A stretch of DNA of 64,000 nucleotides from Eledone cirrhosa (taxonomy: Eukaryota), in assembly GCA_964016885.1 (NCBI GenBank), contig OZ024742.1:60822001-60886000 (forward strand), written 5' to 3'. The position numbers and the translations under genes are program-made. Each line of letters begins with the position of its first letter. The first letter of the stretch is position 1. Shown piece after piece: positions 3,630 through 53,405 of this stretch. The notes beneath the pieces were generated by a model. That model saw only the letters and a list, made by a program, of their open reading frames with translations, ran no database searches and had not been told where the DNA came from.

Positions 3630-3685
<56 letters not shown>

Positions 3686-3692
<7 letters not shown>

Positions 3693-3916
3693 ATGCGTTG
3701 GGAGGGTCATGTTGCCAATAAGAAACACACGCACCAGTTGATTTCACCTCAATTTATTATAAATTAAATTTATAAATTTAATTTATAATAAATTGAAGTG
3801 ATGGCAACTGGTGCGTGTGTTTCTTATTGGCAACATGACCCTCCCAAAGCATAACAATATGGGTTTCAACACACGTTTTCAGATAAAGAATCTTGCTAAA
3901 CAAATTCAGAAACGAT
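3686..3916. mobile_element. Fold-back insert family B, copy 1 (PLE pLTR end)
   Basis: Near-perfect palindrome 3686-3859 centred at 3772/3773, tail 3860-3916; terminus atgaccctcccaa..ataacaat shared with the coding PLE ending at 22246. Confidence 0.75.
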
Positions 3917-23854: not shown

Positions 23855-24091
23855 TATAATAACTAGAAATTGATTAACATATAAATAAACATGAATAATC
23901 ACAGGAGATATCTCCTGTGATTATTCATGTTTATTTATATGTTAATCAATTTCTAGTTATTATAAAATTCTCGGACCTACTCGTTAGAATCTTAGAGCTT
24001 ATTTTGCGGGTGATATGGCGCATGTCTTTCTGGCATGACACCCATAATTTTGATTTAGATTAAATTCATTTGATTTATCTTAATTTTGGAT
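23855..24091. mobile_element. Fold-back insert family A, copy 2
   Basis: 110-bp perfect palindrome 23855-23964 plus tail homologous to 3331-3420. Confidence 0.8.
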
Positions 24092-24793: not shown

Positions 24794-25770
24794 TTAAAGG
24801 AAGTTCGGTGGTGCATTGAGGTGAAGGGGAAGAGAGTTCTGTAAGGAGAAGATAAATTGTTGTTCTCCCAACCAGTGCGAGTCAGGGGTCAGGCACAGTG
24901 TCCGAGACCGAAGACAATGAGGTGGTGTGCGGATCGATAATGTCGGAAGGTGTTCAGCATATCTGTCAGCTAGACGACAGCCAGTCTGACTAAGGTAGAT
25001 ATCTCCGCACGGAGTATAACGGAAACCATAGACAAGGCTGGAGTAGGTGCAGCTGAAGGAGTCCCTAACCCGAAAGGACTGTAGGTTGCGGAAACAACGG
25101 AGGATTGTCTTCTGGAGGGGCATGTAGAAGGGTGGTAGAAAGGGGGAAGAGCAGTCGGTGGTGGGGGCGGCGTGGAGAAACGGCTGTGGTGCGATCGACG
25201 CCACGGGCACGAGTGAGGGTGGCTTGGATTAGATTAGTGGAGTATCCGCGTCTAGTAAAACAATCTGGCCATGTCATGAGACTGAAGATGAAAATCACGG
25301 ATTCGTCTACACATGCGGCTTAGACAGAGGACTTGGGAATAGGGCATGGAGTGTTTTGTGTGGGTGGTATGTGATGAGGAGAAGTCTAGGTAGGCCTGGG
25401 AATCCGGGGGCTTGAAGTAAGCGGAGATGACGAGGAACTGACTGGAGGGGTCACTAGTTACAGAGATGTCTAGGAAGTTAACAGAAAAAGTGGATAGAGG
25501 TGGTGAACTCGAGAGTGGAGTCGAAAGAGCAGAACAATGACAAAAAGCAGTCGAGCTGCGTTCGGGTGAAAGATTGAGTGCCAAAACTGTAGTCAATATA
25601 CCAACTGTAATGCTCAGGGTTTGTGCCAGTGTATTATGAAACGGTCTGAGCCTCAACGTAGCCGACAGATAAGTTGGCGTAGCAGGGGCCCATTCTGTAC
25701 CCACGGCGACCCCCGTCATCTGTTGATAAATCACACCCGAGAAGGAAAAACATTTCAGGGAAAGGACTTT
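24794..25770 (-). pseudogene. Decayed PLE RT-GIY-YIG fragment
   Basis: FSFSGVIYQQMTGVAVGT, FLDISV, YLDFSSSH..HTKHSMPYSQ, VYGFRYTPCGDIYLSQTGCRLADRYAEH. Confidence 0.8.
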
Positions 25771-27040
25771 ACGTGCCAAGAATGACATGTTCAGCTTCCA
25801 GTAACCACGTCCTAACTTGTGTGTCTTGTCTGGGTCGACCGTGCAGATCACAAATTTGTGATCTGAATAGGCGACCGTTTGAAAATGCGGATAACCTATA
25901 CTATCCATATCTACTGACTAACAAAAAAAAACTATCTATATACGATCTACATGACGCTATGTGGTTGATCCAGGTCCACATTAGTGCATTAGAGATTTCT
26001 AGTCGGTAACTGCCAGACAGTTGGAACTGGCTGATTAGGTACTTAAGGTGTTTACCCCAACCTCCTCCTATCAGCTTCTCCAACACAATCCCAGTGATAT
26101 TCTAAGATGCTGCTCTAGTATGCCATTAACAGTAATGGGCGAGACATTCCCAGAAATTCTTCCCCGTGCCTAACAGCATTTGGCCTTCCGGCCCCAGCCG
26201 GAGCATAGATGGCCACCAGTCTAAAGGCACCACCTTCACTATTGCTTATGTCCCGTACCAAAAATATACCGTCCGGATCAAGGAAGATCGACCTTTCTTC
26301 GAGATCCAGGCCGTTCCTAAACAGCACTGCCACCCCACCTCTCATTCCCGGTCAATAAAGAGATCCGAAGATATGTTAGTCGTCAAAAATGGGGCCTAGT
26401 ACGTACGTGTCGGAAACCCGTGTCTCGCTGTCGATAGTCGCATCCATGTCTAGTGAGTGACCTGAGGTCGTTCAGATATCGACCCTGCTTCCAAAACCAC
26501 CCCAAGTCACGAATACTAAAGCATTCCTCTCTTAAGATGGCAATGTAGGATGGTTAAGTAAGAGAGGAAAGAGTTACTTACTTCCCTGGGGCTTGTGAAG
26601 GTCAGGTCGTTTGACTTCCCTATTTGGTGAGGTTTCCTTTGGGAACCTACTTAAAAGCCTATTTGAGACTTTCACACAGGGGGTTTCCATCGAGGCTTTC
26701 ACATCGTCGGAGAAGCTCTAATATTTGTATCAGTGTTTACTGGCATCCACACGATCAGCATTATTCTGGGGACTTTGAAGGTGAGGAGCTAATAATTTCT
26801 CCCTCTTTCTCAATATCTTGACTTCATGATACAAGGGCCATTCGTTTGTGTTTTCCCTTCTTAGTAATACGAAGTTGGGTGTTTTCGTCGTTGTTAATGC
26901 CTGAATGTGGTTCCTTTGTGGAGCATGAGTTGTGGTTGTGTCTTTGTTGTTAGTGGTGGTTGCGTTTTGTTGGCGGTTGTGGTGCTGATTGCATGACGCT
27001 GTTGGAGAAGCACTGGGAAATTGCTGTTTGACAGAAGTGG
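25771..27040 (-). pseudogene. Older Tx1-clade LINE fragment (ORF1 3' end + APE endonuclease)
   Basis: GGVAVLFRNGLDL...IFLDPDG...FRLVAIYAPAGAGRP, SDHKFV, GYWKLN; homologous to 33147-33930. Confidence 0.85.
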
Positions 27041-29194: not shown

Positions 29195-30849
29195 CATTAT
29201 TGTTCTTTGAGTCTCAGTCATTGAGGTTATTTAAATGGAATGTTTGTTGAAATGAATATCAAGCCGCTACCTGCAGCCTCAGATATTCAGGACGTATCGG
29301 AGGGTTCTTACTGTTCCAGCAAGCATGCCTTTTGAAGAGTTCCAGAAAGCGGGGCTGGACTAATCTTCTTTAACCATCCTTGGAAACTCTTTGAGATAGT
29401 ACCTAGTGCGCCTATGACAATCGGGACGACCTTGACTTCATGGCAGTTCCAAATTCTTTAAAACTCCCACTTTATGTCCTGGTATCGGTTAATTTTCTCC
29501 TACTTTTCTTGCACTCTCGTGTCAAATGAGCAGGCTACATCTACAATCAGGCACGATCTTTTTTCCTTGTCCAAAACTAACACGTCAGGCCTATTGTGTT
29601 CTAATTTCTTGTCCGTCTGCATCCTAAAATCCCATAGCACCTTCACCTGATCGTTTTCTATCACCGACTCTGGCCTATGCTCATACCACTTCTCAGAATG
29701 TGGTAAATTGTTTACTTTGAATAGATGCCAGTGGATCACCCTGCCTATCACGTCATGTCTCCAGCCTTTATAGTGAGTCTGGGCTAGGTGTTTACACTCG
29801 GATACAATGTGAGCCACAGTCTCTTCTCTCTCTCCACATATCATACACAGTGGGCTAGCCTCCTCCTTGTAAATATGGTGTTTCACCCACTTCGTTCTGA
29901 GGGCCTGCTCTTGCGCAGCCATTAGCATCCCTTCTGTAGCCTTTTTTAACCAGTTCCATGTCTGTGGATCTCTAAATTCAGTTTTCTTAAAGAAGGTACT
30001 ATGAAGGGATTTTTCATGAAGGTTGCTCTTCCTCCTTGTTGTTATTTCCTCCTTGGACATCCCCTGGTCTATTGTCTTCCCCTTCAGTACAATTTTGAGC
30101 ATTGGCTCCCTACTGTCAGTCACGTATTTGTGCAGGTTGTTTTTCTCCATCTAAACACAGTCCTCTATGCTGATAAGACCTCTTCTACCTTCAGATATAT
30201 TTAACTAGAGTCTATCGAGATCACTCCTCTTGTGGAACATGTTGTAGTTAGTCAATAGCTTCCTAGTCTTCCTATCCATTTCTTGTTGTTCCACAACATT
30301 CCATTTCAGAATTCCTGCACTGTACCTAATAATAGACACAGCTCGGGAATTCACTGCACTTATGACATTCCTACTAGTTAGATGTGATTTTAATACGCTC
30401 TTTGCTCTGCTTATGTACTCACATCTTATCAATTCCTTCATTTTTTTGTTCTTGATGTCATCTGCCTCCAGAACACCTAATTATTTGTGTCCTTCTTCAG
30501 TGTCAATTTCCTTTATCATTTCACCTGTTGGTACCTGGATTCCGTTGCTTCTGCTCAGTTTACCGTTCTTCGTCACTAGGACTCCACACTTAGTAATACC
30601 AAATTCCATATATATATCATTGCTGAAAATACGGACAGTGTCAACAAGTACATCCAACTCCTTCTCACGCTTCCCAAAGAGTTTAAGATCGTCCATGAAG
30701 AGGAGGTGGTTGATGGTAAGCTCTCCCTTTTCCAACTAGTATCCTGCTCTCACTTTTCTCAATATAATGGTCAGGGGTGTCAGGGCAAGGACAAACAGCA
30801 GAGGGGACAAATTATCTCCCTGGAAGATACTTCTCTTGATCTTCACGCC

Positions 30850-30850
<1 letters not shown>
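29195..30850 (-). mobile_element. 5'-truncated R4/Dong-clade non-LTR retrotransposon (RT + CCHC + restriction-like endonuclease)
   Basis: FQGDNLSPLLF, HLLFMDDLKLF, CMICGEREETVAHIVSEC, RHD, KWYEH.P, LWDF, RPDVLVLD..IVDVA; 5' end abuts (TAA)n. Confidence 0.9.

Positions 30851-30901
<51 letters not shown>
30851..30901. repeat. (ATT)17 microsatellite
   Basis: Direct reading. Confidence 0.95.
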
Positions 30902-31111
30902 GGCGACCTACGTAGTAAATCGTATCATCGTGAGCTCCGCAAAGGTTTGTTATTTCCGTTTGTTAAAAATTGCCATTTATGGAAAATTTTTATTGTTAAC
31001 TATATATAAGCGCACATACATTGTTTTCCGAAAAGGACACCCAAAAAGATTGGGGCCTTATGCCCAAAATTTAAACTTTTATGATTATCAGAAAATTTCT
31101 TTGAAAAAAAA

Positions 31112-33112
31112 ATGGCTAATTCACCACTGCACCAATCAGCTGAAAGCCTTTCTCACAGATTAACACCTCACACCGACACCACCATTGTAAATATTACTAC
31201 GTTTGCCAACACAAACAATTTAAGCACTAGCAATATTTTAAATTTGTCTCAGGCAGACATTCATTTCCCGCCATTACGAATGACTGCAGGTGTTAAAGCC
31301 GCCACCACCACCACCACTGCGAGAACCACCACCACCACCACCACCACCGCGACAACAGAAACAAAAGGAAAAAATAAATCAACACGTGATGTCGAAATAT
31401 TTTCAACCAAAATGGACTCTCCCAAACCGAACTTCACTGACGTCACCACCACCACAACTGAAACTAAAATTAATAATAACAAAAATAACGATAGCAACAA
31501 CAACAACAATGACATTAAAAAAACCACCCTGAGTTTTGCCAGAGTAGCAAAACAGTGCGAAGCATTTACGGTAACTCAGGAGGAATTAGAAAATGCCAAA
31601 CAAATGGTAAAGAAAGATGGGTACAGGGTCAGCCTCACCCCCCACCCCCCCACACACACATAATAAAAAGGAGCATCGGCGCCTATGCACCGTGTCGTAT
31701 CGAACAATAAATGTAAAATCGCGCCGAGTGGAACGGGCATCCGAGTCCCAAATCCAAAAAGCTTTGGGACATGTGTGGGCAAGAGAAACCCACATCAGAC
31801 GTGGGCAGAAGTATGGAACCGTGGACGTGTTCTTTGAAACACCAGAGGAGGCTAGAGAACACTCCATGGCCCCATTAAGAAGTGACGACTTCACACTCGT
31901 CCCAAGCTATTGTGGCCAGAGACTCGTAAAGATCAGGGTGACCCACGTTCCACCGGCCAACGAAATTCCCTGGCTAATAGCGGCCGTCCTCGCCGGCATC
32001 GAAGCCAACACAAAGTTAATAGCAATAGCAAAAGAAAAGCAGGAGAACTGGTCCGGATCTGGGATGGAGCTCCTGATCCAAGCGGACCAAAAAAGCATTG
32101 AGGAGATCCCAGAGGTAATAGACCTCACTGACGGCAGCCACCTCACCGTAATTGTCGAGGGCAGAAGGCCTAGGTGTGTCGTTTGTGGTGAATGAACCCA
32201 CCTAAGGGCTTTCTGCCCTCAGGCTAAAAGGTAGAGGCCACCTCTCCTACCCACCCCAGTGACACAACCATCAACACCACCAGTAGCAGAGATGGCAGCA
32301 ACAACTGTAGCAGCAACAACAGAAGCAACTATAACAGCAACAACCCCAGCAACAGTAGCAAAACCAACACTACCACCACCAGCAAAACCAACACCACCAC
32401 CACCCAACGCTTCAGAACTAGCACCAGCGCCTACACCATCCACTACGCCACAACCAAAACTAACGCCTGTGGAGGATTTTCCACTCCCCGGCCTATCACA
32501 ACTGTAGACAGATTGTGACGACGAGGAGTGGGAAACGGTATCAGGGAAAAAAAAGAAACCAAAAAAGAAAAAAATTCTCTTCCTTCTCCCTCCAAAAACA
32601 AAATACAGAGGGAAGCAAATAAATTAACAAACCAAACAGTTAGGACAGATATGCCACCATCCACACCAGCATCACCAACCCCATCGACCCAAACACCAAC
32701 ACCATCACCATCATTAACCCCAACACCACCATCACCTACATCACAAAAGTCACCAAAATGCGAAACAGAAATAAACCCACAACAAACGCAAACAAAACAA
32801 AACAACCAAAACGATACACACTACACAGCATTAAATTTGAACAACAAGCAATAATTACACTACATTCAAGATAACACCAGCATCAGAGAAAAAGACTACA
32901 CAACAACCCAAAAATTCACACCACCTCCACACATACAAATCACTCGCATCACACAGAAAACGTACATGACACTAAAACAAAAATTCCCCAAAGACATCGG
33001 AGACTTCCGACAAGCACTCTCCATGAGGATTTATAAGGACATCCTTCCTGAGGAGGCCACAAGCAGTGAAAAGGATGGAAAAACCGTCCTTCCTCTACGA
33101 GAAGTAAGGTAA
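31112..33112 (+). pseudogene. Tx1 ORF1 (zinc knuckle, Pro/Thr-rich), disrupted
   Basis: MANSP...; frameshift ~31650; knuckle CVVCGE*THLRAFC; ends gta agg taa. Confidence 0.8.
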
Positions 33113-33146
33113 GTGGTCTTTCCCATCTTTTCCACTCCTTTTCAAC

Positions 33147-36100
33147 ATGACCTCACTCAAAATAGGCAGCTTAAATGCGCGTGGCTTGGGGTCGTCATGG
33201 AAGCAGGGCCACATGCTCAACGACCTCAGGTCAATAAACATAGATGTAGTGGCCATCAGCGAGACCAGAATCTCCGAAGCACGGGCCTTCGCACCGATCT
33301 TAGGCGGCTACGATGTGTACGCATCTCCCAGCCGTCCGGGATCGGGGGGAGGAGTTGCTGTGCTTTTTCGGAGAGGTTTGGATCTTGCCATACGGGCCAT
33401 CTTCCTGGACCCAGAAGGTAAGTTGGTGGTGCTGGACGTGACCAGCGGAGACGGGCAAGCTTTCAGGTTAGTGGCCGTCTATGCCCCGACAGGAGCAGGG
33501 CGGCCTGATTTCTTCCGGCGTCTAGAGACCTTTCTTGGAACGTCCCGCTCTTTAGTGTTAGTGGGCGACTGGAACGGGATCTTAGATGCACGCTGGGATT
33601 GTGTGGGATTAGTGGATAAGGAAGGAGGGTGCAAGTGTCTCACCAACCTGCTCAGGCGTTTTGAACTGTCTGACAGGTACCGAATGGATTTCCCGAATGG
33701 ATTTCCCGAATGTACCAGTGTGGACTTGGACAAATCGCATAGGGTCATCCAGATCATATCTAGATAGAGTATTTTGTAGGGAAATAGATAGGTCTAGCAT
33801 AGGCTGTCTACAATTCAAGATAGTCACCTACAAGGACCACAAATTCGTGATCTGTGTGCTTGACTTAGATAGGCTTCATAGACGAGGACCCGGCTACTGG
33901 AAGCTAAACGCGTGCTTACCAGCGCGCAAGGCCTCCAGAGACCGGATTAGCGAACTAGTTAAGCGGGCGTTGACGGGGGCCATCGTCAACAACAAGTGGT
34001 GGTTTACTCTGAAAAGAGCAATTAGAATAGAATCGATTAGGTTTAGTAAGGCTTTAGCAATAGAGAAAAATAGAGCAGAGGGAGAACTAGTTAGAAAATT
34101 AGACGAGGCGCTTAGCAAAGGCATTGCGACCGACGTGCTTGCGGCGAAATTGGCCCTTGACCAATTCTTCAATGCAAAGCACGAAGGCTGCGTTGTCAGA
34201 GCTAGGGTGCGTGCTCTCAGGCACGAGGGGACGAAAGCCGTTCAATGGGCCCGAGTGGCGGAGGCGCGTCGTGGCAACAAAGCCACGATCTGGTCTTTGG
34301 TGGACCACGACGGGCGCATGCTACTCGATCCCGGGCAAATGTGTGAAGCTTTTCAGCGACACTTCGCTCAACTGTTCGGGGGCTGTGGGGAACCAGATCG
34401 AGGGATGGAATTTAGTGTCTACCTCGACGGACTGCCGTGGCTTTCGGCCACTGAGGGGGAGTGTTGCGAAAAGCCGATAACAACCGCTGAAGTACGGGAG
34501 GCAATGACTGGCTGCACAAGGGGTAAATCGCCTGGTTTGGATGGTCTGCCCTATGAACTTTACGTACAAATGCCAGACTTGTTCGGAGGCCTCTTGGCGG
34601 ACGTCTACTGCAACTGGTAACAGAACGTGAGAATTCCCAGCTCTGTGAGCCGAGAGCGGTGGCGCGGCTGAGAAAGGATCCGAACAAGGGGGATAACATA
34701 GATAATTTTAGGCCCATAATTCTGCTAAACACAGAGTTCAAGATTTTGGCCAAGGTGCTAGCAAAGAGGTTGGCGCTTGTCGTTGGTGGTCTGGTGGCGG
34801 AGGTACAGACATGCGCCATTCCCGACAGATCCATCCACGACAACCTCCAGCTCATGCGATACGTCGTAGAGAGGGTAGCTAGGGAACCTGGCACGGGTGG
34901 GTCTTTGATCAATTTAGATCAGTCGAAAGCCTTCGATAAGGTCGACCATCGTTACCTAGCGGCAGTCCTGAGGGCGGCTGGCTTTGGGCCCGTCTTAAGA
35001 GGCTGGATCGCTGCCATGCACAGCGACATCTGCACTGTAGTGAGAGTGAACGGTCACCTTTCGGAAACGTTCAACATCATGCGCTCGGTCCGCCAAGGAT
35101 GTCCCCTCTCGTCCCTATTGTACGTATTGACTCTCAAGCCGTTACTGCACAAACTGGAGACGTTGAGGGGGGTCCCGCGCGAACTAGGATGCGGAAGATC
35201 CGTGTCAGCATATGCGGACGATGTCACCGTAGTGGTGTCGAACGCCAAACCCATCGAGGCGATCGGCACTACACTAAGAGAATACGAAGCGGTGACAGGA
35301 GCAATGATCAACCAGGAAAAGTCAGTAGGCCTGCAGCTCGGCACCTGGAGAGGCAGGTCCATGCCGTCCGACAGCGTCGTCGGGCGCTGGACGGACGGAC
35401 CGGTTAAATTGCAAGGGGTCTGGTTCGGTCCAGACCTCCAGACGGACAAAAACTGGGACGAGGTGACGAGCAGGGTGGCTTCTCTCACCCAGAAATGGGC
35501 CGAGAGGAGGCTATCCCTGAAAGGTCGAGCGGAGGTGGCTAACGCGTACATCGCGTCTGACATCTACTACCGCCTGACCGCCGTACCTTGTCCTAAGCCC
35601 CTCCTGACTGCGCTGGAGCGTTTGCTCTTTCGCCTCTTGTGGAAGAGACGCGCTCCGATGGTCAGGCGGTCCATCTGCTGTCAACACCCGCTACGTGGAG
35701 AGCTGGGCATGCCGTGGCTGATGATGCGCAGACATGCGCTCAGGCTACGACATCTAAACCTCTTCCTCGACGGTGATCAGGTGTGGTTGCCGTTTGCTCG
35801 ACACGTTTTTGCCCAGCTCGTCTCCTTGACGGAGCTGCAGTCCTGGGTCAAGCGAAGACCGAGAGGGAGCGCTTGCAGACTGGAATGTCTTCAGGCGCTC
35901 ACAGCCCTCGACCAATCGGGCAATGTGATCGGTGGAAACTCCACCTTGGCGTTCTATATGGGGATTAGTGGAGGGGAAGAGCGACGACGTACTTGGAGAA
36001 ACTCTAGGCGTCGACGAAGATCAACTAGCCAATCTCTTCGGAAGGACTTTCGGGCTGGGGCTTATGGACAACTTCCAAAAATCCCTGGCCTGGCAGTGCT

Positions 36101-36579
36101 ACCGGGGTGCTTTGCCAGTTCGGGATAAACTCTACAGGCATGGAGGTGCCGTCAGCCGGGCATGTCCGAGAAGCGCACAGGGCGACGAAACCGTCCTGCA
36201 CGCACTCGTCCAGTGTCCGAGCATTGCTGACTTGTGGATTTATGTCGAACACCTGCTATCACGTGTAGGACGGATCCAGCTATCAGCTGAGTCCATCGTG
36301 AGGATTGCCCCGCCCTCCTTCTTTAGCCGGGAAGGGCAGGCAGTTTTTATCTGTCTGGTGGCCATGGCGAAAGAGATAGTATGGTGGACACATTTGAAAG
36401 GGCTGAAGACGAGCACTTACCTCTTCGGTGATGCTCTGATTGACTTTTTCAAATTTCATTTGAAAAGGAAAATCAGAGGAGAGAGGGAAGTGCTCTCTTC
36501 CCAGCATTTTGTTGAAAGATGGGTGAGAGAAGCAAGAATGGCCCGAGTGAATGGGCCTACTCTGAGTATATATCTGTAA
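33147..36579 (+). pseudogene. Tx1 ORF2 (APE endonuclease, reverse transcriptase, CCHC), disrupted
   Basis: SLNARGL, SETR, GDWN, LDR, KSPGLDG, FRPI.LLN, LDQSKAFD, RQGCPLS, YADD, ETVLHALVQC; 13-bp duplication frameshift ~33700, stop at 34618. Confidence 0.92.
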
Positions 36580-36836
36580 ATTAAAGGTGGAAAACTGGGA
36601 GAGGGCACTTGCCTTGGTGGTCAGGGTCATTGTGGCCTTTTACTGGGCTTTCTCCACAAATGTCCCTCCGAAGTCTCCCCCCTATTGGGGAATTTTTTAT
36701 TGTTATTTTTTTGTTACATCCTCTGTTTTTGTTTTTACACGCAGAAATGCCCATTTGTACCGTCCTGTATTGTCCTGTACACTCCTTAATGTCTACTTTA
36801 TGTAAACCCTTGTGGTTAATAAAGAAAAAAAAAAAA

Positions 36837-36837
<1 letters not shown>

Positions 36838-36870
<33 letters not shown>
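36838..36870. repeat. (ATT)11 spacer between the two Tx1 copies
   Basis: Direct reading. Confidence 0.95.
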
Positions 36871-37086
36871 GAATGCTATGGTTGACGGAGGCTCGGATCT
36901 GTAAGGTACTGTAAATTTTGAACGCTTTAACAATTGTAAATTGTTTAAAACTTAGACCAACTTGTAGACAAAAACACCCTCCTCCTCGTGAGAGGGGTCT
37001 TTCTGCCCGTTATTTGGCCCTTCGGGGTTAAATAACTGCTTATTGGGGGTTTGTACCCAATATTTATTTTAAACAAAAAAAACAAC

Positions 37087-39184
37087 ATGGCTACGAAGAA
37101 TTTGCATAGGTCACTCCCACTCATTCCGTCTTCTTCTTCCTCAATCGTCACTACAGCAGAGAGAAGATTGTCTCTCTCCCTCACTTCTTTAAATGTGTCT
37201 CTCTCCCTCCCTTCTCTTTCGCAAGTGACGAAAGAAAAGAAAAGTCTCGTGCAAAGCATGCAAGGTTTCTCCACGACGACGACGACAGCGACGAAACAGG
37301 TGTGCGGGAAATACGAAAACCCAGTTCATTCGTCTGACGTCAGGAATAATAGCAGTAGCAGCCGTAATAACAACAGCAACAGTGACAATGAAAACAACAG
37401 TAGCAGCCGCAACAGCATCACCAGCAGCATAAACAACAACAGCATTATCAGCAGCAACACCAACAACAACCACAGCAACAGCGGCGAAGGCAGTACTCGT
37501 AGTACCTGCAGCAACAACAAAAGTAACAGCAGCTCTGACGACAACAGCAACAACAGCAGCAGAGAAAAACCAATCTCATTTGCAGGTATTGCGAAAAACT
37601 TGGAAACAATCCTCATAACAAATGAGGAATTAGAGGAAGCGAAGAAGATGGTGACAAAGAACGGACAACGAGCAATCTGCAAGGCAGCGGAAAAATTTTT
37701 CGAAACCCAAGAGCACTGTACGGTCACGTACCGTACAGTAAGTACAAAATCCCGTAGGGTGGAAAGAGCCACAGAGACCCAAATACAAAAAGCCTTGGGG
37801 TCTGTGTGGCAGCGGAAAACGCACATCACCCGAGGCAAAAAATATGCCACCATAGACGTACTTTTTGCCACACCCCAGGAGGCAAAGGCCCAATCCGTAG
37901 TGACCCTAAGGAGCGAGGAAATGGTGTTGGTGCCCTCCTACTGCGGGCAAAAAATTGTGAGGGTCAAACTGACCCACGTCCCCCCCCGGAATGGCCCCTT
38001 CTTGGCTGGCCGCGTCTGTCCTCGTCGGAATCGAGGACAAAACAACTGCACTGCAAGTACAGAAAAAAGTAAGAGAAGATTGGGTCGGCACCTCCATTGA
38101 GATGCTATTCCAAACCAACCAGGAGTGCATCGAAGCTATCCCGGATGTGATAGACTTCGATAACGGCACTCAACTGCCCATAAGTGTTGAGGGCAAACGC
38201 CCGAAATGCTTTCGCTGTGGATCGAAGACTCACCTCAGGGCCTTCTGCAACGAGAAGACCCTGAGAAAGGAGAAAACCCCCCTCCTTCCGAATCCGGCTC
38301 CACGGCTACCAGCAACAGGACAAGCGGCAACCAGGAAACATAGGTCCGTGACACCCATACCCACGCCACGGAAATCAAAAACAGCAGCAGTGGAAATATT
38401 AACAACAACAACAGCAATAACAAATGCAGCTGCAACAGAGACTCCAGTGCAAACATCACCAACAACAACAAGTGAAAGAGTGGAACTGGTACTCCTCCCC
38501 GACCTCACAGAATCAGACATGGAGTGTGAGGTGGGAGAGGGATGGCAAAAGGTCGTAAGAAGGCACAAACGCAGATGCAGCGCATCGTCGCCTTTGAAAA
38601 GGGAGGAAAGAAATGAGAAAAGGGTAAAGTCTACTGCAAAGAGACCCACAGCAGCAACACTACCAACACCATCACCACCCACACTAGCACCACCATCACC
38701 ACCGGCGACAACCCCACCGCCAACAACACCTTCAACACCACCACCACAAGCACCAACATCGCAAACACAACAACAAAACACACACACCCAGCAACAACGA
38801 CAAGAAAATAGCAGAACCACACCCCACCCCCAGAAAAACAAATGCACGGCAATAAATACACACAACAAGAAACTAATGAATTACATAATTGAACACACAG
38901 ACATTTCACAACAGGACTACATAATACCAGCACCAATCAAAACGCCAACTAACATAAGACTGCTAAAAATAGCACAGAATCAATACACAAACATTAAAAC
39001 GAAATTCCCCAACGCAGTTGGTGATTTCAGGGACCTAGGGGGAACCATCAATCGAAGAGTATATTCAAACATTCTCTTAGAAGAGCCGACGACCAGCCGA
39101 AGGGACGATTCAACGGTCCCTTCACCAGACGATCAAGAGAAAAGGGATGTAAAAACCATCCCTCCTCTACCAAAAGTACGGTAA
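37087..39184 (+). pseudogene. Tx1 ORF1 (zinc knuckle CFRCGSKTHLRAFC), one frameshift
   Basis: ORFs 37051-38100 and 37991-39184 joined by a frameshift in the C-run ~37980. Confidence 0.85.
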
Positions 39185-39219
39185 GTGGTCTTTCCCATCT
39201 TTTCCACTCTATTTTAAAC

Positions 39220-42200
39220 ATTACCTCACTCAGAATAGGCAGCATAAATGCGCGTGGCTTGGGGTCGTCATGGAAGCAGGGTCACCTGCTCAACGACCTC
39301 AGGTCACTAAACATAGATGTAGTGGCCATCAGCGAGACCAGAATCTCCGAAGCACGGGCCTTCGCACCGATCTTCGGCGGCTACGATGTGTACGCATCTC
39401 CCAGCCGTCCTGGATCGGGTGGAGGTGTTGCTGTGCTTTTTCGGAGAGGTTTGGATCTCGCCATACGGGCCATCTTCCTGGACCCAGAGGGTAAGCTGGT
39501 GGTGTGTGGACGTGACCAGCGGAGACGGGCAAGCTTTCAGGCTAGTGGCCGTCTATGCCCCGACAGGAGCAGGGCGGCCTGATTTCTTCCGGCGTCTGGA
39601 GACCTTTCATGGAACGTCCCGCTCTTTAGTGTTAGTGGGCGACTGGAACGGGATCTTAGATGCACACTGGGACTGTGTGGGATTAGCAGATAGGGGTGGA
39701 GGGTGCAAGAGCCTCACCAACCTACTCAGGCGTTTTGAACTGTCTGACAGGTACCGATTGGATTTCCCAAATGCGCCAATGTGGACTTGGACAAATCGCA
39801 TAGTGTCATCCAGATCATATCTAGATAGAGTATTTTGTAGGGAAATAGATAGGTCTAGCATAGGCTGTCCACAATTCAAGATAGTCAGCTACACGGACCA
39901 CAAATTCGTGATCTGTGTGCTTGACTTAGATATGCTTCATAGACGAGGACCCGGCTACTGGAAGCTAAACGCGTCCTTACCAGCGCGCAAGGCCTACAGA
40001 GACCGGATTAGCGAACTAGTTAAGCGGGCGTTGACGGGGGCCATCGTCAATAACAAGTGGTGGTTTGCTCTGAAAAGAGCGATTAGAATAGAATACATTA
40101 GGTTTAGTAAGGCTTTAGCAATAGAGAAAAATAGAGCAGAGGGAGAACTATTTAGAAAATTAGACGAGGCGCTTAGCAAAGGCATTGCGACCGACGTGCT
40201 TGCGGCGAAATTGGCCCTTGACCAATTCTTCAATGCAAAGCACGAAGGCTGCGTTGTCAGAGCAAGGGTGCGTGCTCTCAGACACGAGGGGACGAAAGCC
40301 GTTCAATGGGCCCGAGTGGCGGAGGCGCATCGTGGCAACAAAGCCACGATCCGGTCTTTGGTGGACCACGACGGGCGCATGCTACTCGATCCCGGGAAAA
40401 TGTGTGAAGCTTTTCAGCGACACTTCGCTCAGCTGTTCGGGGGCAGCGGTGGGCCGGGTCGAGGGATGGACTTTAGTGTCTAGCTCGACGGACTACTGCC
40501 GCGGCTCTCGGCCACTGAGACGAAGTGTTGCGAAAAGCCGATAACAGCCGCTGAAGTAATGGAGGCAATGACTGGCTGCACAAGGGGTAAATCGCCTGGT
40601 TTGGATGGTCTGCCCTATGAACTTTACGTACAGATGCCAGACTTGTTCGGAGGCCTCTTGGCGGACGTCTACTGCAACTGGCAACAGAACGGGAGAATTC
40701 CCAGTTCTGTGAGCCGAGGAGCGGTGGCACTGCTGAGAAAGGATCCGAACAAGGGGGATAACATAGAAAATTTCCGGCCCATAACTCTGATAAACACAGA
40801 GTTTAAGATTTTGGCCAATATGCTAGCAAAGAGGTGGGCGCTTGTCGTTGGAGGTCTGGTGGGAGAGGCGCAGACATGCGCCATTCCCGACAGATCCATC
40901 CACGACAACCTCCACCTCATGCGATACATCGTAGAGAGGGTAGCTAGGGAACCTGGCACGGGTGGGTCCTTGATCAATTTAGATAAGTCGAAAGCTTTCG
41001 ATAGGGTCGACCATCGTTACCTAGCGGCAGTCCTGAGGGCGGCTGGCTTTGGGCCCGTCTTCAGAGGCTGGATCGCTGCCATGCACAGCGACATCTGCTC
41101 TGTGGTGAGAGTGAACGGTCACCTGTCGGAACCGTTCAACATCATGCGCTCGGTCCCGCCAAGGATGTCCCCTCTCGTCCCTCTTGTACGTATTGACTCT
41201 CGAGCCATTACTGCACAAACTGGAGACGTTGAGGAGCGTCCCGCGCGAACTAGGATGCGGAAGATCCGTGTCAGCATATGCGGACGATGTCACCGTAGTG
41301 GTGTCGAACGCCAAACACATCGAGGCGATCGGCACTACACTAAGAGAATACGAAGCGGTGACAGGAGCAATGATCAACCAGGAAAAGTCGGTGGGCCTGC
41401 AGCTCGGCCCCTGGAGAGGCAGGTCCATGCCGTCCAACAGCGTCGTCCGACGCTGGACGGACGGACCGGTTAAATTGCTAGGGGTCTGGTTCGGTCCGGA
41501 CCTCCAGACGGACAAAAACTGGGACGAGGTGACGAGCAGGGTGGCTTCTCTCACCCAGAAATGGGCGGAGAGGAAGCTATCCCTGAAAGGTCGAGCGGAG
41601 GTGGCTAACGCGTACATCGCGTCTGACATCTGCTACCGCCTAACCGTCGTACCTTGTCCTAAGCCTCGCCTTACTGCGCTGGAGCGTTTGCTCTTTCGCT
41701 TTTTGTGGAAGGGACGTGCTCCGATGGTCAGGCGGTCCATCTGTTGTCAACACACGCTGCGTGGAGGGCTGGGCATGCCGTGGCTGATGATGCGCAGGCA
41801 CGCGCTCAGGCTACGACATCTCCACCTCTTCCTCGACGGTGATCAGGTGTGGTCGCCGTTTGCTAGACGCGTTTTTCCCCAGCTCGTTTCCTTGACGGAG
41901 CTGCAGTCCTGGGTCAAGCGAAGACCGAGAGGGAGCGCCTGGAGACTGGAATGTCTTCAGGCACTCACAGCCCTCGACCAATCGGGCAATGTGATCGGTG
42001 GAAACTCCACCTCGGCGTTCTATAGAGGATTAGTGGAGGGGAAGAGCGACGACGTACTTGGGGAAACTCTAGGCGTCGACGAAAATCAACTAGCCAATCT
42101 CTTCGGAAGAACTTTCGGGCCAGGGCCTATGGACAACTTCCAGAAATCTCTGGCCTGGCAGTGCTACCGAGGAGCCTTGCCAGTTCGGGATAAACTCTAC

Positions 42201-42644
42201 AGGCATGGAGGTGCCGTCAGCCGGGCATGTCCGAGATGCGCGCAGGGCGACGAAACCGTCCTGCACGCACTCGTCCAGTGTCCGAAAATTGCTGACTTGT
42301 GGGTTTATGTCGAACACCTGCTGTCGCGTTTAGGACGGATCCGGCTATCATCTGAGTCCATCGTGAGCATTGCCCCGCCCTCCTCCTTTAGCCGGGAAGG
42401 GCAGGCAGTTTTTATCTGCCTGGTGGCCATGGTGAAAGAGATAGTATGGTGGACACGTTTGAAAGGGCTGAAGACGAGCACTTACCTCTTCGGTGATGCT
42501 CTGATTGACTTTTTCAAATTTCATTTGAAAAGGAAAATCAGAGGAGAGAGGGAAGTGCTCTCTTCCCAGCATTTTGTTGAAAGATGGGTGAGAGAAGCAA
42601 GAATGGCCCGAGTGAATGGGCCTACCCTGAGTATATATCTGTAA
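39220..42644 (+). pseudogene. Tx1 ORF2, disrupted; ATT at the start-codon position
   Basis: Same motifs as copy 1, including CPRC..ETVLHALVQC; frameshifts ~39505 and ~41158, stop at 40481. Confidence 0.92.
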
Positions 42645-42892
42645 ATTAAAGGTGGAAAACTGGGAGAGGGCACTTGCCTTGGTGGTCAGGGTCATTGTGG
42701 CTTTTTACTGGGCTTTCTCCACAAATGTCCCTCCGAAGTCTGCCCCCATTGGGGAATTTTTCATTGTTATTTTTTGTTACATCCTCTGTTTTTGTTTTTT
42801 TACACGCAGAAATGCCCATTTGTACCGTCCTGCATTGTCCTGCACTGTCCTTAATGTCTACTTTATGTAAACCCTTGTGGTTAATAAAGAAA

Positions 42893-42940
<48 letters not shown>

Positions 42941-42941
<1 letters not shown>

Positions 42942-43160
42942 AGGGTGGTGGATTGGCAGTATCGGTAGAGGGTCTGACGCCATTCTTTGCAGCAATGAAT
43001 TACAACCCTTTATGATCTGAGTTCAAATCCCGCCGAAGTTAACTTTTCCTTTCATCCTTACGGGGTCGATAAAATAAAGTATCAGTAATACACTTGGGTC
43101 GATTTAATCGACTTTCCCCTCCCCCAAAATTGCTGGCCTTGTGCCTATATAAGAAACCAT
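42941..43160 (+). mobile_element. tRNA-derived SINE (best-preserved copy)
   Basis: A box tggcagtatcgg, B box gagttcaaatcc, body cctttcatccttacggggtcgataaaataaagta, (att)n tail. Confidence 0.9.
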
Positions 43161-43209
43161 TATTATTATTATTATTTTATTATATATATATATATATGTA
43201 TATATATAT

Positions 43210-43398
43210 AACGAAGGAATTGTTGTAAGGAACCAGATGGACCATAACGCACCAGAGTACTCAATACTTAGGTTAGTGGAGTGGGTAATATGAAAAAGTA
43301 TGACCCCGACGGCAGAGATCAAGCCGTTTCGACGGCTATTTCTGGACTGAAATAGCCGTCGAAACGGCTTGAGCTCTGCCGTCGGGGTCATACTTTTT

Positions 43399-43400
<2 letters not shown>
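43210..43400. mobile_element. Fold-back insert family D, copy 2
   Basis: Right arm gaaatagccgtcgaaacggcttgagctc..ccgtcggggtcatactttttcc nearly identical to Naiad end 46553-46604. Confidence 0.85.
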
Positions 43401-43468
<68 letters not shown>

Positions 43469-52882: not shown

Positions 52883-53016
52883 TATATATAGATAGATATA
52901 TATATGTATAAATATTTCGTATCTCCACAGAAATACAGTTTTAGGAAGCCGTAGCTATTCAAACAACTGGGGGCTAACGCCCTCTGGTAATGTCCAGTAG
53001 AAGCATGGGGGACAAA

Positions 53017-53056
53017 CGTCTATACATTTCAGACTTAACTGGCCTTCGTCAGGACG
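53017..53056 (-). ncRNA. Minimal type I hammerhead (left arm)
   Basis: cgtc CTGACGA aggc-cagttaa-gtct GAAA tgta TA gacg. Confidence 0.75.
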
Positions 53057-53215
53057 GCCATTCCCACCGCTTACGACTGCTGGACTAGAAGACAGGCGGC
53101 AATATATACTTTTCTCGTCTGTGTAAATGAGGTGTTTAATCTCATTTGCACAGACGAGAAAAGTATATATTCTCGCCTGTCTTCTAGTCCAGCAGTCGCA
53201 CGCGGTGGGAGGGAA

Positions 53216-53255
53216 CGTCCTGACGAAGGCCAGTTAAGCCTGAAATGCATAGACG
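53216..53255 (+). ncRNA. Minimal type I hammerhead (right arm), fully canonical
   Basis: cgtc CTGACGA aggc-cagttaa-gcct GAAA tgca TA gacg. Confidence 0.85.
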
Positions 53256-53405
53256 GTTGTCCTCCTTGCTTCTGCTGGACATCACCAGAGGGCGTTAGCA
53301 CCCCGGTTTTTGCATAGCGACGGCTTCCTAAAACTCTATTTCTTTGGAGATACGAAATAGTTATACATATTGTATAAAGCTATGCTTGAAGCGAAATCCT
53401 ATTTC

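Follow-up and report, generated by a model that had tools for sequence, protein, structure and literature searches.

How did four retrotransposons come to lie one behind another in a single ATT microsatellite of the Eledone cirrhosa genome? The window considered here is the whole analysed stretch of 64,000 nucleotides (assembly GCA_964016885.1, contig OZ024742.1, positions 60,822,001 to 60,886,000, forward strand), in which a minus-strand Dong-like fragment is followed by (ATT)17, long interspersed element (LINE) A, (ATT)11, LINE B, (ATT)15, a short interspersed element (SINE) and (ATT)6. The order up to the SINE and the repeat counts reproduce those given by an earlier reading of the letters without database searches (the sequence-only reading). 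The answer proposed here, held at a probability of roughly 80%, is that the stack represents four separate retrotransposon insertions into one microsatellite, two of them from a lineage of the Tx1 group that inserts into (ATT)n, likely through an endonuclease nicking the AAT strand.

The two LINEs had been taken for copies of a single family, which does not hold. Their DNA is 94% identical over the last 3.77 kb, the first 2.2 kb yields no long alignment, and the cores of the first open reading frame (ORF1) share 52-54% of residues at the protein level, with nearly the same endonuclease in both. Thus, A and B carry different modules of 5' untranslated region (UTR) and ORF1 and are therefore separate insertions; tandem duplication as the origin of this pair was rejected on the same ground. 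Searches of the species' own genome return four such 5' modules (A-D) placed on two ORF2 lineages (A/B and C/D; C and D ORF1 cores are 55-60% identical), plus a further 3' type, E.

ATT as target or as tail

According to the flanks of full-length copies, ATT precedes the 5' end in 30 of 30 copies for each of modules A, B and C. Queries with the 3' end selected 60 loci, of which 59 show ATT within 1 base of that end. Genome-wide, 2,427 of the 2,529 exact B starts (96%) are directly preceded by TTATTATT; as a background rate, elsewhere in the window just 72 of 99,400 positions have three ATT units before them. Full-length junctions might, however, be explained by a head carried on the RNA, and the test of targeting is therefore provided by 5'-truncated copies. 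The 60 loci from 3' queries contain 16 copies truncated within reach, two of which look like a duplicated pair. Loci with the element's own body upstream were dropped as internal deletions (L343, L344, L346, L362 and L370 for Tx1, L205 and L225 for Dong; L-numbers denote loci), and truncation points of family E (L311-L340) were left out because of a poor reference.

The 5' junction of the truncated copies joins ATT in 13 of 16 cases. Six truncated copies are accompanied by duplications (9, 13, 16, 39, 43 and about 50 bp) which begin at ATT and have non-repeat letters on both sides, so ATT was present before insertion. A Tx1 family counts as sequence-specific if the target occurs in more than 20% of flanks (PMC4494074; here and below, statements on the literature refer to the accessible portions of the cited papers), and both the B ends and the truncated copies lie well above this value. 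The pattern that would speak for a mere tail, with (ATT)n confined to the 3' end and unrelated 5' flanks, is not the one observed in the tabulated flanks, and the (ATT)n-specific Tx1 family put forward by the sequence-only reading thus gains support from the 5' flanks of A, B and C, from the B ends genome-wide and from the truncated copies. Judging by these junctions, it is very probable that the Tx1 lineage targets (ATT)n.

Several points weigh against this reading. The loci are top-scoring matches and not a random sample, except for the pattern counts and L402-L421. ATT is absent from the 5' junction in 3 of the 16 truncated copies (L002, L019 and L363). In addition, the 96% obtained for B starts would, taken alone, give too high an estimate of targeting should the 5' AUU be supplied by the RNA itself.

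Another tandem array is found elsewhere in the genome. At 222.061-222.121 Mb (G000 C4; L125-L130, L154) at least 10 full-length B copies stand head-to-tail with (ATT)6-17 between them, several having an open ORF2 or ORF1. Members of this ten-copy array differ by 0.07-1.4%, mostly less than dispersed copies do (0.7-3%), and a repeated Dong+A marker suggests local duplication as well as insertion. That local duplication occurs, together with the perfect phasing of full-length junctions, agrees with the view that ATT is simply the head and tail of the element, that no target is preferred, and that tandems arise from unequal crossover or read-through. This view is nevertheless very improbable and largely refuted by copies that join ATT although truncated at many different points, and by duplications with unique letters that begin at ATT; as for the window, duplication does not apply to A and B, which belong to different modules.

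Regarding the phase of the junction, TATT stands immediately before the first base in all 30 copies of each of modules A, B and C. The 30 D copies, in contrast, show a mixed phase (TATT in 11, TTAT in 9, others in 10), with an ATT run close upstream in all but L275 as judged by eye. If the second cut fell at random, mixed phases would be expected, and the uniformity seen in A, B and C therefore calls for an explanation. Where the 3' flank has a variant near its beginning, the 5' side mirrors it in 0 of 7 full-length A/B/C copies versus 6 of 8 truncated ones (p=0.007), a contrast weakened by the selection of cases by eye. The explanation somewhat favoured by this analysis is that A, B and C RNAs begin inside the upstream repeat and so carry a 5' AUU, their complementary DNA (cDNA) annealing to the target in register; a second cut that is itself sequence-specific, at ATT^ATT, would also fit the A-C phase. 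A similar explanation has been given for R2, where RNA containing upstream 28S sequence and annealing of the cDNA account for uniform versus variable 5' junctions (PMC3774820). R2 differs in having a ribozyme and a restriction-like nuclease.

The Dong-like element and the SINE

The Dong-like piece of the window matches residues 603-1118 of an intact 1130-amino-acid (aa) copy (P0003) at 83%, is truncated at the 5' side, and has just two AAT units at its 3' end. The assignment of this minus-strand element to the Dong/R4 clade is one that we presume. Its intact relative encodes a single ORF with reverse transcriptase (RT), CCHC and a restriction-like nuclease motif of the PD-(D/E)xK type, and has R2 proteins as its best relatives among solved structures. 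Together with TAA at both junctions, these are the features of Dong.

Among truncated Dong copies, 16 of 22 have AAT at the 5' junction (five further Dong loci ran to the locus edge), and Dong sequence found upstream of a Tx1 start is antiparallel to it in all 51 cases. These counts support the use of the same repeat by the Dong-like element from the other strand, and with it the suggested convergence of Tx1 and an element with an unrelated nuclease on one repeat. The Dong elements of Bombyx, Anopheles and Biomphalaria are TAA-specific (PMC3812793, PMC3774820), and the element in the window behaves likewise; in contrast to the Tx1 LINEs, it has a restriction-like nuclease, a single ORF and the opposite strand. 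Tx1 ends are also abutted by a second minus-strand element, which probably belongs to another Dong-like family and terminates in GCAACTGT(AAT)n (L109, L123, L148, L168 and others).

The stack had been described as a hotspot shared with Dong and the SINE. The stack is real, but the site is not special. In the fetched loci, another Tx1, a Dong or a SINE directly adjoins 110 of 193 Tx1 3' ends and 121 of 162 5' ends; since most ends are placed in this way, the arrangement in the window is typical of the genome.

The tail pattern of the SINE is matched exactly at 147,543 places in the genome, corresponding to at least that many copies. The last 26 nt of the SINE find their best match in the last 26 nt of the LINE, ahead of all other windows (5,994 in B and 5,883 in C). 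Both ends consist of a hairpin followed by an A-rich spacer of 11-13 nt that ends in GAAA.C or GAAACA, and the loop CTTGT sits on differing stems with pairing kept (AACC/GGTT and GGCC/GGCC in Tx1, TGGC/GCC(A/T) in the SINE). Target duplications are present in 20 of 30 SINE copies, compared with 5 of 870 in a cross-pair control, and measure 13-19 bp in 18 of 19 (the window copy left out). The six target positions A-T-T-A-T-T are matched in 16, 14, 18, 18, 16 and 15 of these 19, and the base ahead of the duplication is T or C in 17.

Since tail and target are both shared, the likely mobiliser of the SINE is this Tx1 lineage, and the SINE is probably its passenger. The co-occupant noted earlier does adjoin (ATT)15, but it is likely more than a neighbour. 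Dong was rejected as the partner because of the opposite tail orientation and the lack of a match between the SINE end and the Dong end. The head of the SINE gave no tRNA match in ARAGORN or Rfam, box-like motifs being seen by eye only.

This partnership has points on its debit side as well. The SINE-LINE match covers just about 25 nt with a stem of 3-4 bp (−3 kcal/mol), the SINE lies mostly outside long repeats (four or more ATT units upstream in 2 of 30), and its copies look older (about 90% mutual identity versus 97% for B). The short shared stretch leaves some room for another LINE (an RTE, CR1 or L2 family, or an extinct Tx1 relative) to have moved the SINE, the likeness of the hairpins being due to chance or shared ancestry; octopus genomes are rich in RTE and CR1 families (PMC8967140, PMC13282606). 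That another LINE was responsible is nonetheless unlikely in view of the same loop, spacer length, end motif and ATTATT target with duplications. Moreover, a search for the CTTGT-end motif in 1.9 Mb of fetched loci returned 171 Tx1 ends, 170 SINE ends and 66 others, and no third element with this end appears among the 60 others listed (SINE/Tx1 variants and internal matches).

A 3' tail with a stem-loop, held in common with the Tx1 LINEs (about 25 nt), along with the same target signature, is what characterises stringent SINE/LINE pairs. Loop-specific recognition of a 3' hairpin is described for a stringent L2 LINE (PMC4176376), and a comparable recognition is proposed here. SINEU, in turn, was linked to mobilisation by Tx1-Mar through target and age (PMC4494074), so that in both systems a Tx1-mobilised SINE is deduced from a shared target, with the difference that the tail hairpin is shared here too.

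The LINEs and their place in the Tx1 group

LINEs A and B contain APE, RT and zinc-finger domains. As stated earlier, both span the full length, but both are broken: compared with an intact ORF2, that of A falls into 4 pieces and that of B into 3, each with 1 stop. LINE B is the youngest element of the stack (97-98% identity to other copies). Intact natural copies are present in the genome (L099 and L126), with two ORFs and an ORF2 of 1139 aa that consists of an N-terminal APE, RT and a C-terminal zinc finger. The positions of all elements of the stack are collected in Table 1.

Table 1. Elements and repeat runs of the stack, in window coordinates
Feature	Positions	Strand	Details
(ATT)2	29196..29201	+	short AAT tail or target left at 3' end of Dong-like element
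Dong/R4-like element (presumed clade), 5'-truncated	29202..30849	-	RT end, CCHC finger, PD-(D/E)xK-type nuclease; 6 stops
(ATT)17	30851..30901	+	between Dong 5' junction and LINE A
LINE A, Tx1-group, 5' module A	30902..36837	+	ORF1 about 31112-33112, ORF2 33147-36579, both frameshifted
LINE A 3' hairpin AACC-CTTGT-GGTT, then AATAAA	36805..36817	+	
(ATT)11	36838..36870	+	between LINE A and LINE B
LINE B, Tx1-group, 5' module B	36871..42894	+	ORF1 37087-39184, ORF2 39220-42644, both frameshifted
LINE B 3' hairpin AACC-CTTGT-GGTT	42870..42882	+	
(ATT)15	42895..42939	+	between LINE B and SINE
SINE, about 217 bp, A-rich end LINE-like	42940..43158	+	3' hairpin GGC-CTTGT-GCC at 43135-43145
(ATT)6	43159..43176	+	3' of SINE; matches 18-bp target duplication

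The usual 3' end of the LINEs is AATAAAGAAA(T/A/G/C)C or AATAAATGAAATC. The ends reported by the sequence-only reading are confirmed for A and B as far as the G right after ATT and the AATAAA...C followed by ATT are concerned, but the A run is not typical of the family end. A poly(A) tail was rejected, the long A run in copy A representing a local expansion. At L322 (minus strand, near 454 from the far end), (TATC)n follows a Tx1-like end whose hairpin is related.

Modules A-D have, where ORF1 ends, a splice-donor-like GTAAGT motif with a pyrimidine tract after it (window 33107-33149 and 39179-39222; L126, L291, L310), which occupies three different frames relative to the ORF1 stop. Of the 73 junctions found, 72 retain an intact stretch and none has lost it; in A and B, splicing to the AG in the fifth codon of ORF2 would give an in-frame ORF1-ORF2 fusion. 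Although the four 5'UTRs cannot otherwise be aligned, each has a similar inverted repeat, recognised by eye, shortly upstream of the ORF1 start (window about 31055-31076 and 37044-37066; L247, L142).

Regarding placement, ORF2 scores 462 bits against L377, an element inserted into a U2 small nuclear RNA (snRNA) gene, and 180 bits against human L1 ORF2p, and this higher score supports the assignment of A and B to the Tx1 group. L377 is the best of four metagenome relatives scored (about 30% identity, 1150-aa frame). The closest named protein match comes from Argonauta (74% identity), and the closest non-cephalopod relatives share 39-46%. No Tx1 label was obtained from cluster names or the protein atlas. 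The RT tree, in which the genome's copies group with Argonauta (99) and then with a sister group (100), tempers the assignment, as it is a quick tree that leaves the base unresolved and includes no named Tx1 reference.

None of the metagenome relatives found, all distant or decayed, has ATT-run flanks. Some stand beside snRNA genes, with U2 after L377 and L374, U1 after L379 and, by eye, a U1-like 5' flank in L375. The position of L377, the top-scoring metagenome relative, in a U2 gene recalls Keno, a U2-targeted Tx1 family (PMC4494074), although calling it Keno-like rests on the U2 flanks and not on a named reference. Keno differs from the LINEs described here in its snRNA-gene target and its terminal A run.

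Elsewhere in the window, an old decayed fragment of a related LINE (25690-26535, minus strand) retains 41-59% protein identity to the endonuclease region and lacks ATT flanks. Palindromic elements with (TA)n flanks, likely resembling miniature inverted-repeat transposable elements, occur at 52902-53370, 43288-43403, 3685-3860 and 23855-23964.

Proposed mechanism and meaning

In the proposed mechanism, the APE endonuclease would nick 5'-AATAAT^R-3' (the register being uncertain by one base), and reverse transcription would start at the 3' hairpin of the RNA. Each insertion would leave ATT on both sides, so that the target is renewed and arrays can grow. In modules A, B and C, transcription would probably begin within the upstream repeat, the cDNA ending in AAT and annealing in register in an R2-like manner, and module D would do without this step. 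The common CUUGU hairpin likely gives the SINE access to the same ORF2, and the SINE would land on short ATTATT sites. The Dong-like element would cut the other strand with its unrelated nuclease, which may explain why it lies antiparallel to Tx1.

A different division of labour is conceivable, in which the nuclease shows no more than a loose specificity for AT-rich TpA steps and RNA guides the priming, a 3' (AUU)n from read-through into the flank pairing with the nicked AAT DNA. Such priming agrees with the position of AATAAA 6-7 nt from the element end, which would presumably place cleavage and polyadenylation inside the downstream ATT run. It also agrees with the ATT followed by CTT in L019, L366, L370 and L414, and with the far looser requirements of the SINE compared with the LINE. 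RNA-guided priming is nevertheless judged unlikely as the main source of specificity. SINE targets starting with GCTATT or AATATT received no added ATT (L175, L187, L189), and the T or C preceding the SINE duplications falls outside any RNA pairing. The segment NR(I/M)GSSRSY, located ahead of the catalytic LDR motif, is conserved in the nucleases of modules A-D, and outside relatives have a different sequence there. Nuclease specificity, preferred here, and RNA-guided priming can also act together.

Microsatellite targets are known for other members of the group, namely (TC)n for Kibi and (TTC)n for Koshi in teleosts and (TTCC)n and (TTTC)n for crocodilian families (PMC4494074, PMC3812793). 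The elements described here are likewise Tx1-group APE LINEs in a microsatellite, but they sit in ATT/AAT instead of a pyrimidine tract, belong to a cephalopod, lack a poly(A) tail and have at least four 5' modules on two ORF2 lineages. The (TC)n or (TTC)n target of the Kibi/Koshi type was not observed, CTT runs following one ATT in three copies (L366, L370, L414). L1-Tx1 and Dong-R4 are reported as abundant or recently active among octopus repeats, and no analysis of their targets was found in the accessible portions of that literature (PMC13282606, PMC8967140). The searchable literature contains no ATT/AAT-targeted Tx1 family; Repbase is outside its reach, and an ATT entry there is quite possible. 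The earlier statement that an ATT-specific Tx1 family had not been described thus holds for the searchable literature only, in which neither a tail-sharing Tx1 SINE nor a named partner for this SINE was found.

Taken as a whole, a more ambitious claim can be made only tentatively: that an ATT-specific Tx1 lineage of the stringent type drives one of the largest octopod SINE families, combining recognition of a CUUGU hairpin, a self-renewed target, swaps of 5'UTR/ORF1 on a constant ORF2 and a repeat shared with Dong on the opposite strand, the ATT target and the tail-sharing Tx1 SINE both being previously undescribed.

If the proposed reading is correct, ATT would represent a new target class for sequence-specific APE retrotransposons, in a clade known to switch targets, and intact young copies could serve in assays of how such nucleases read DNA. 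Module D versus A, B and C would offer a natural contrast within one lineage for the formation of 5' junctions. A likely driver could also be named for SINE expansion in a SINE-rich group (SINEs make up 11.6% of the O. vulgaris genome; PMC13282606), and ATT/AAT microsatellites in these animals would act as insertion sinks.

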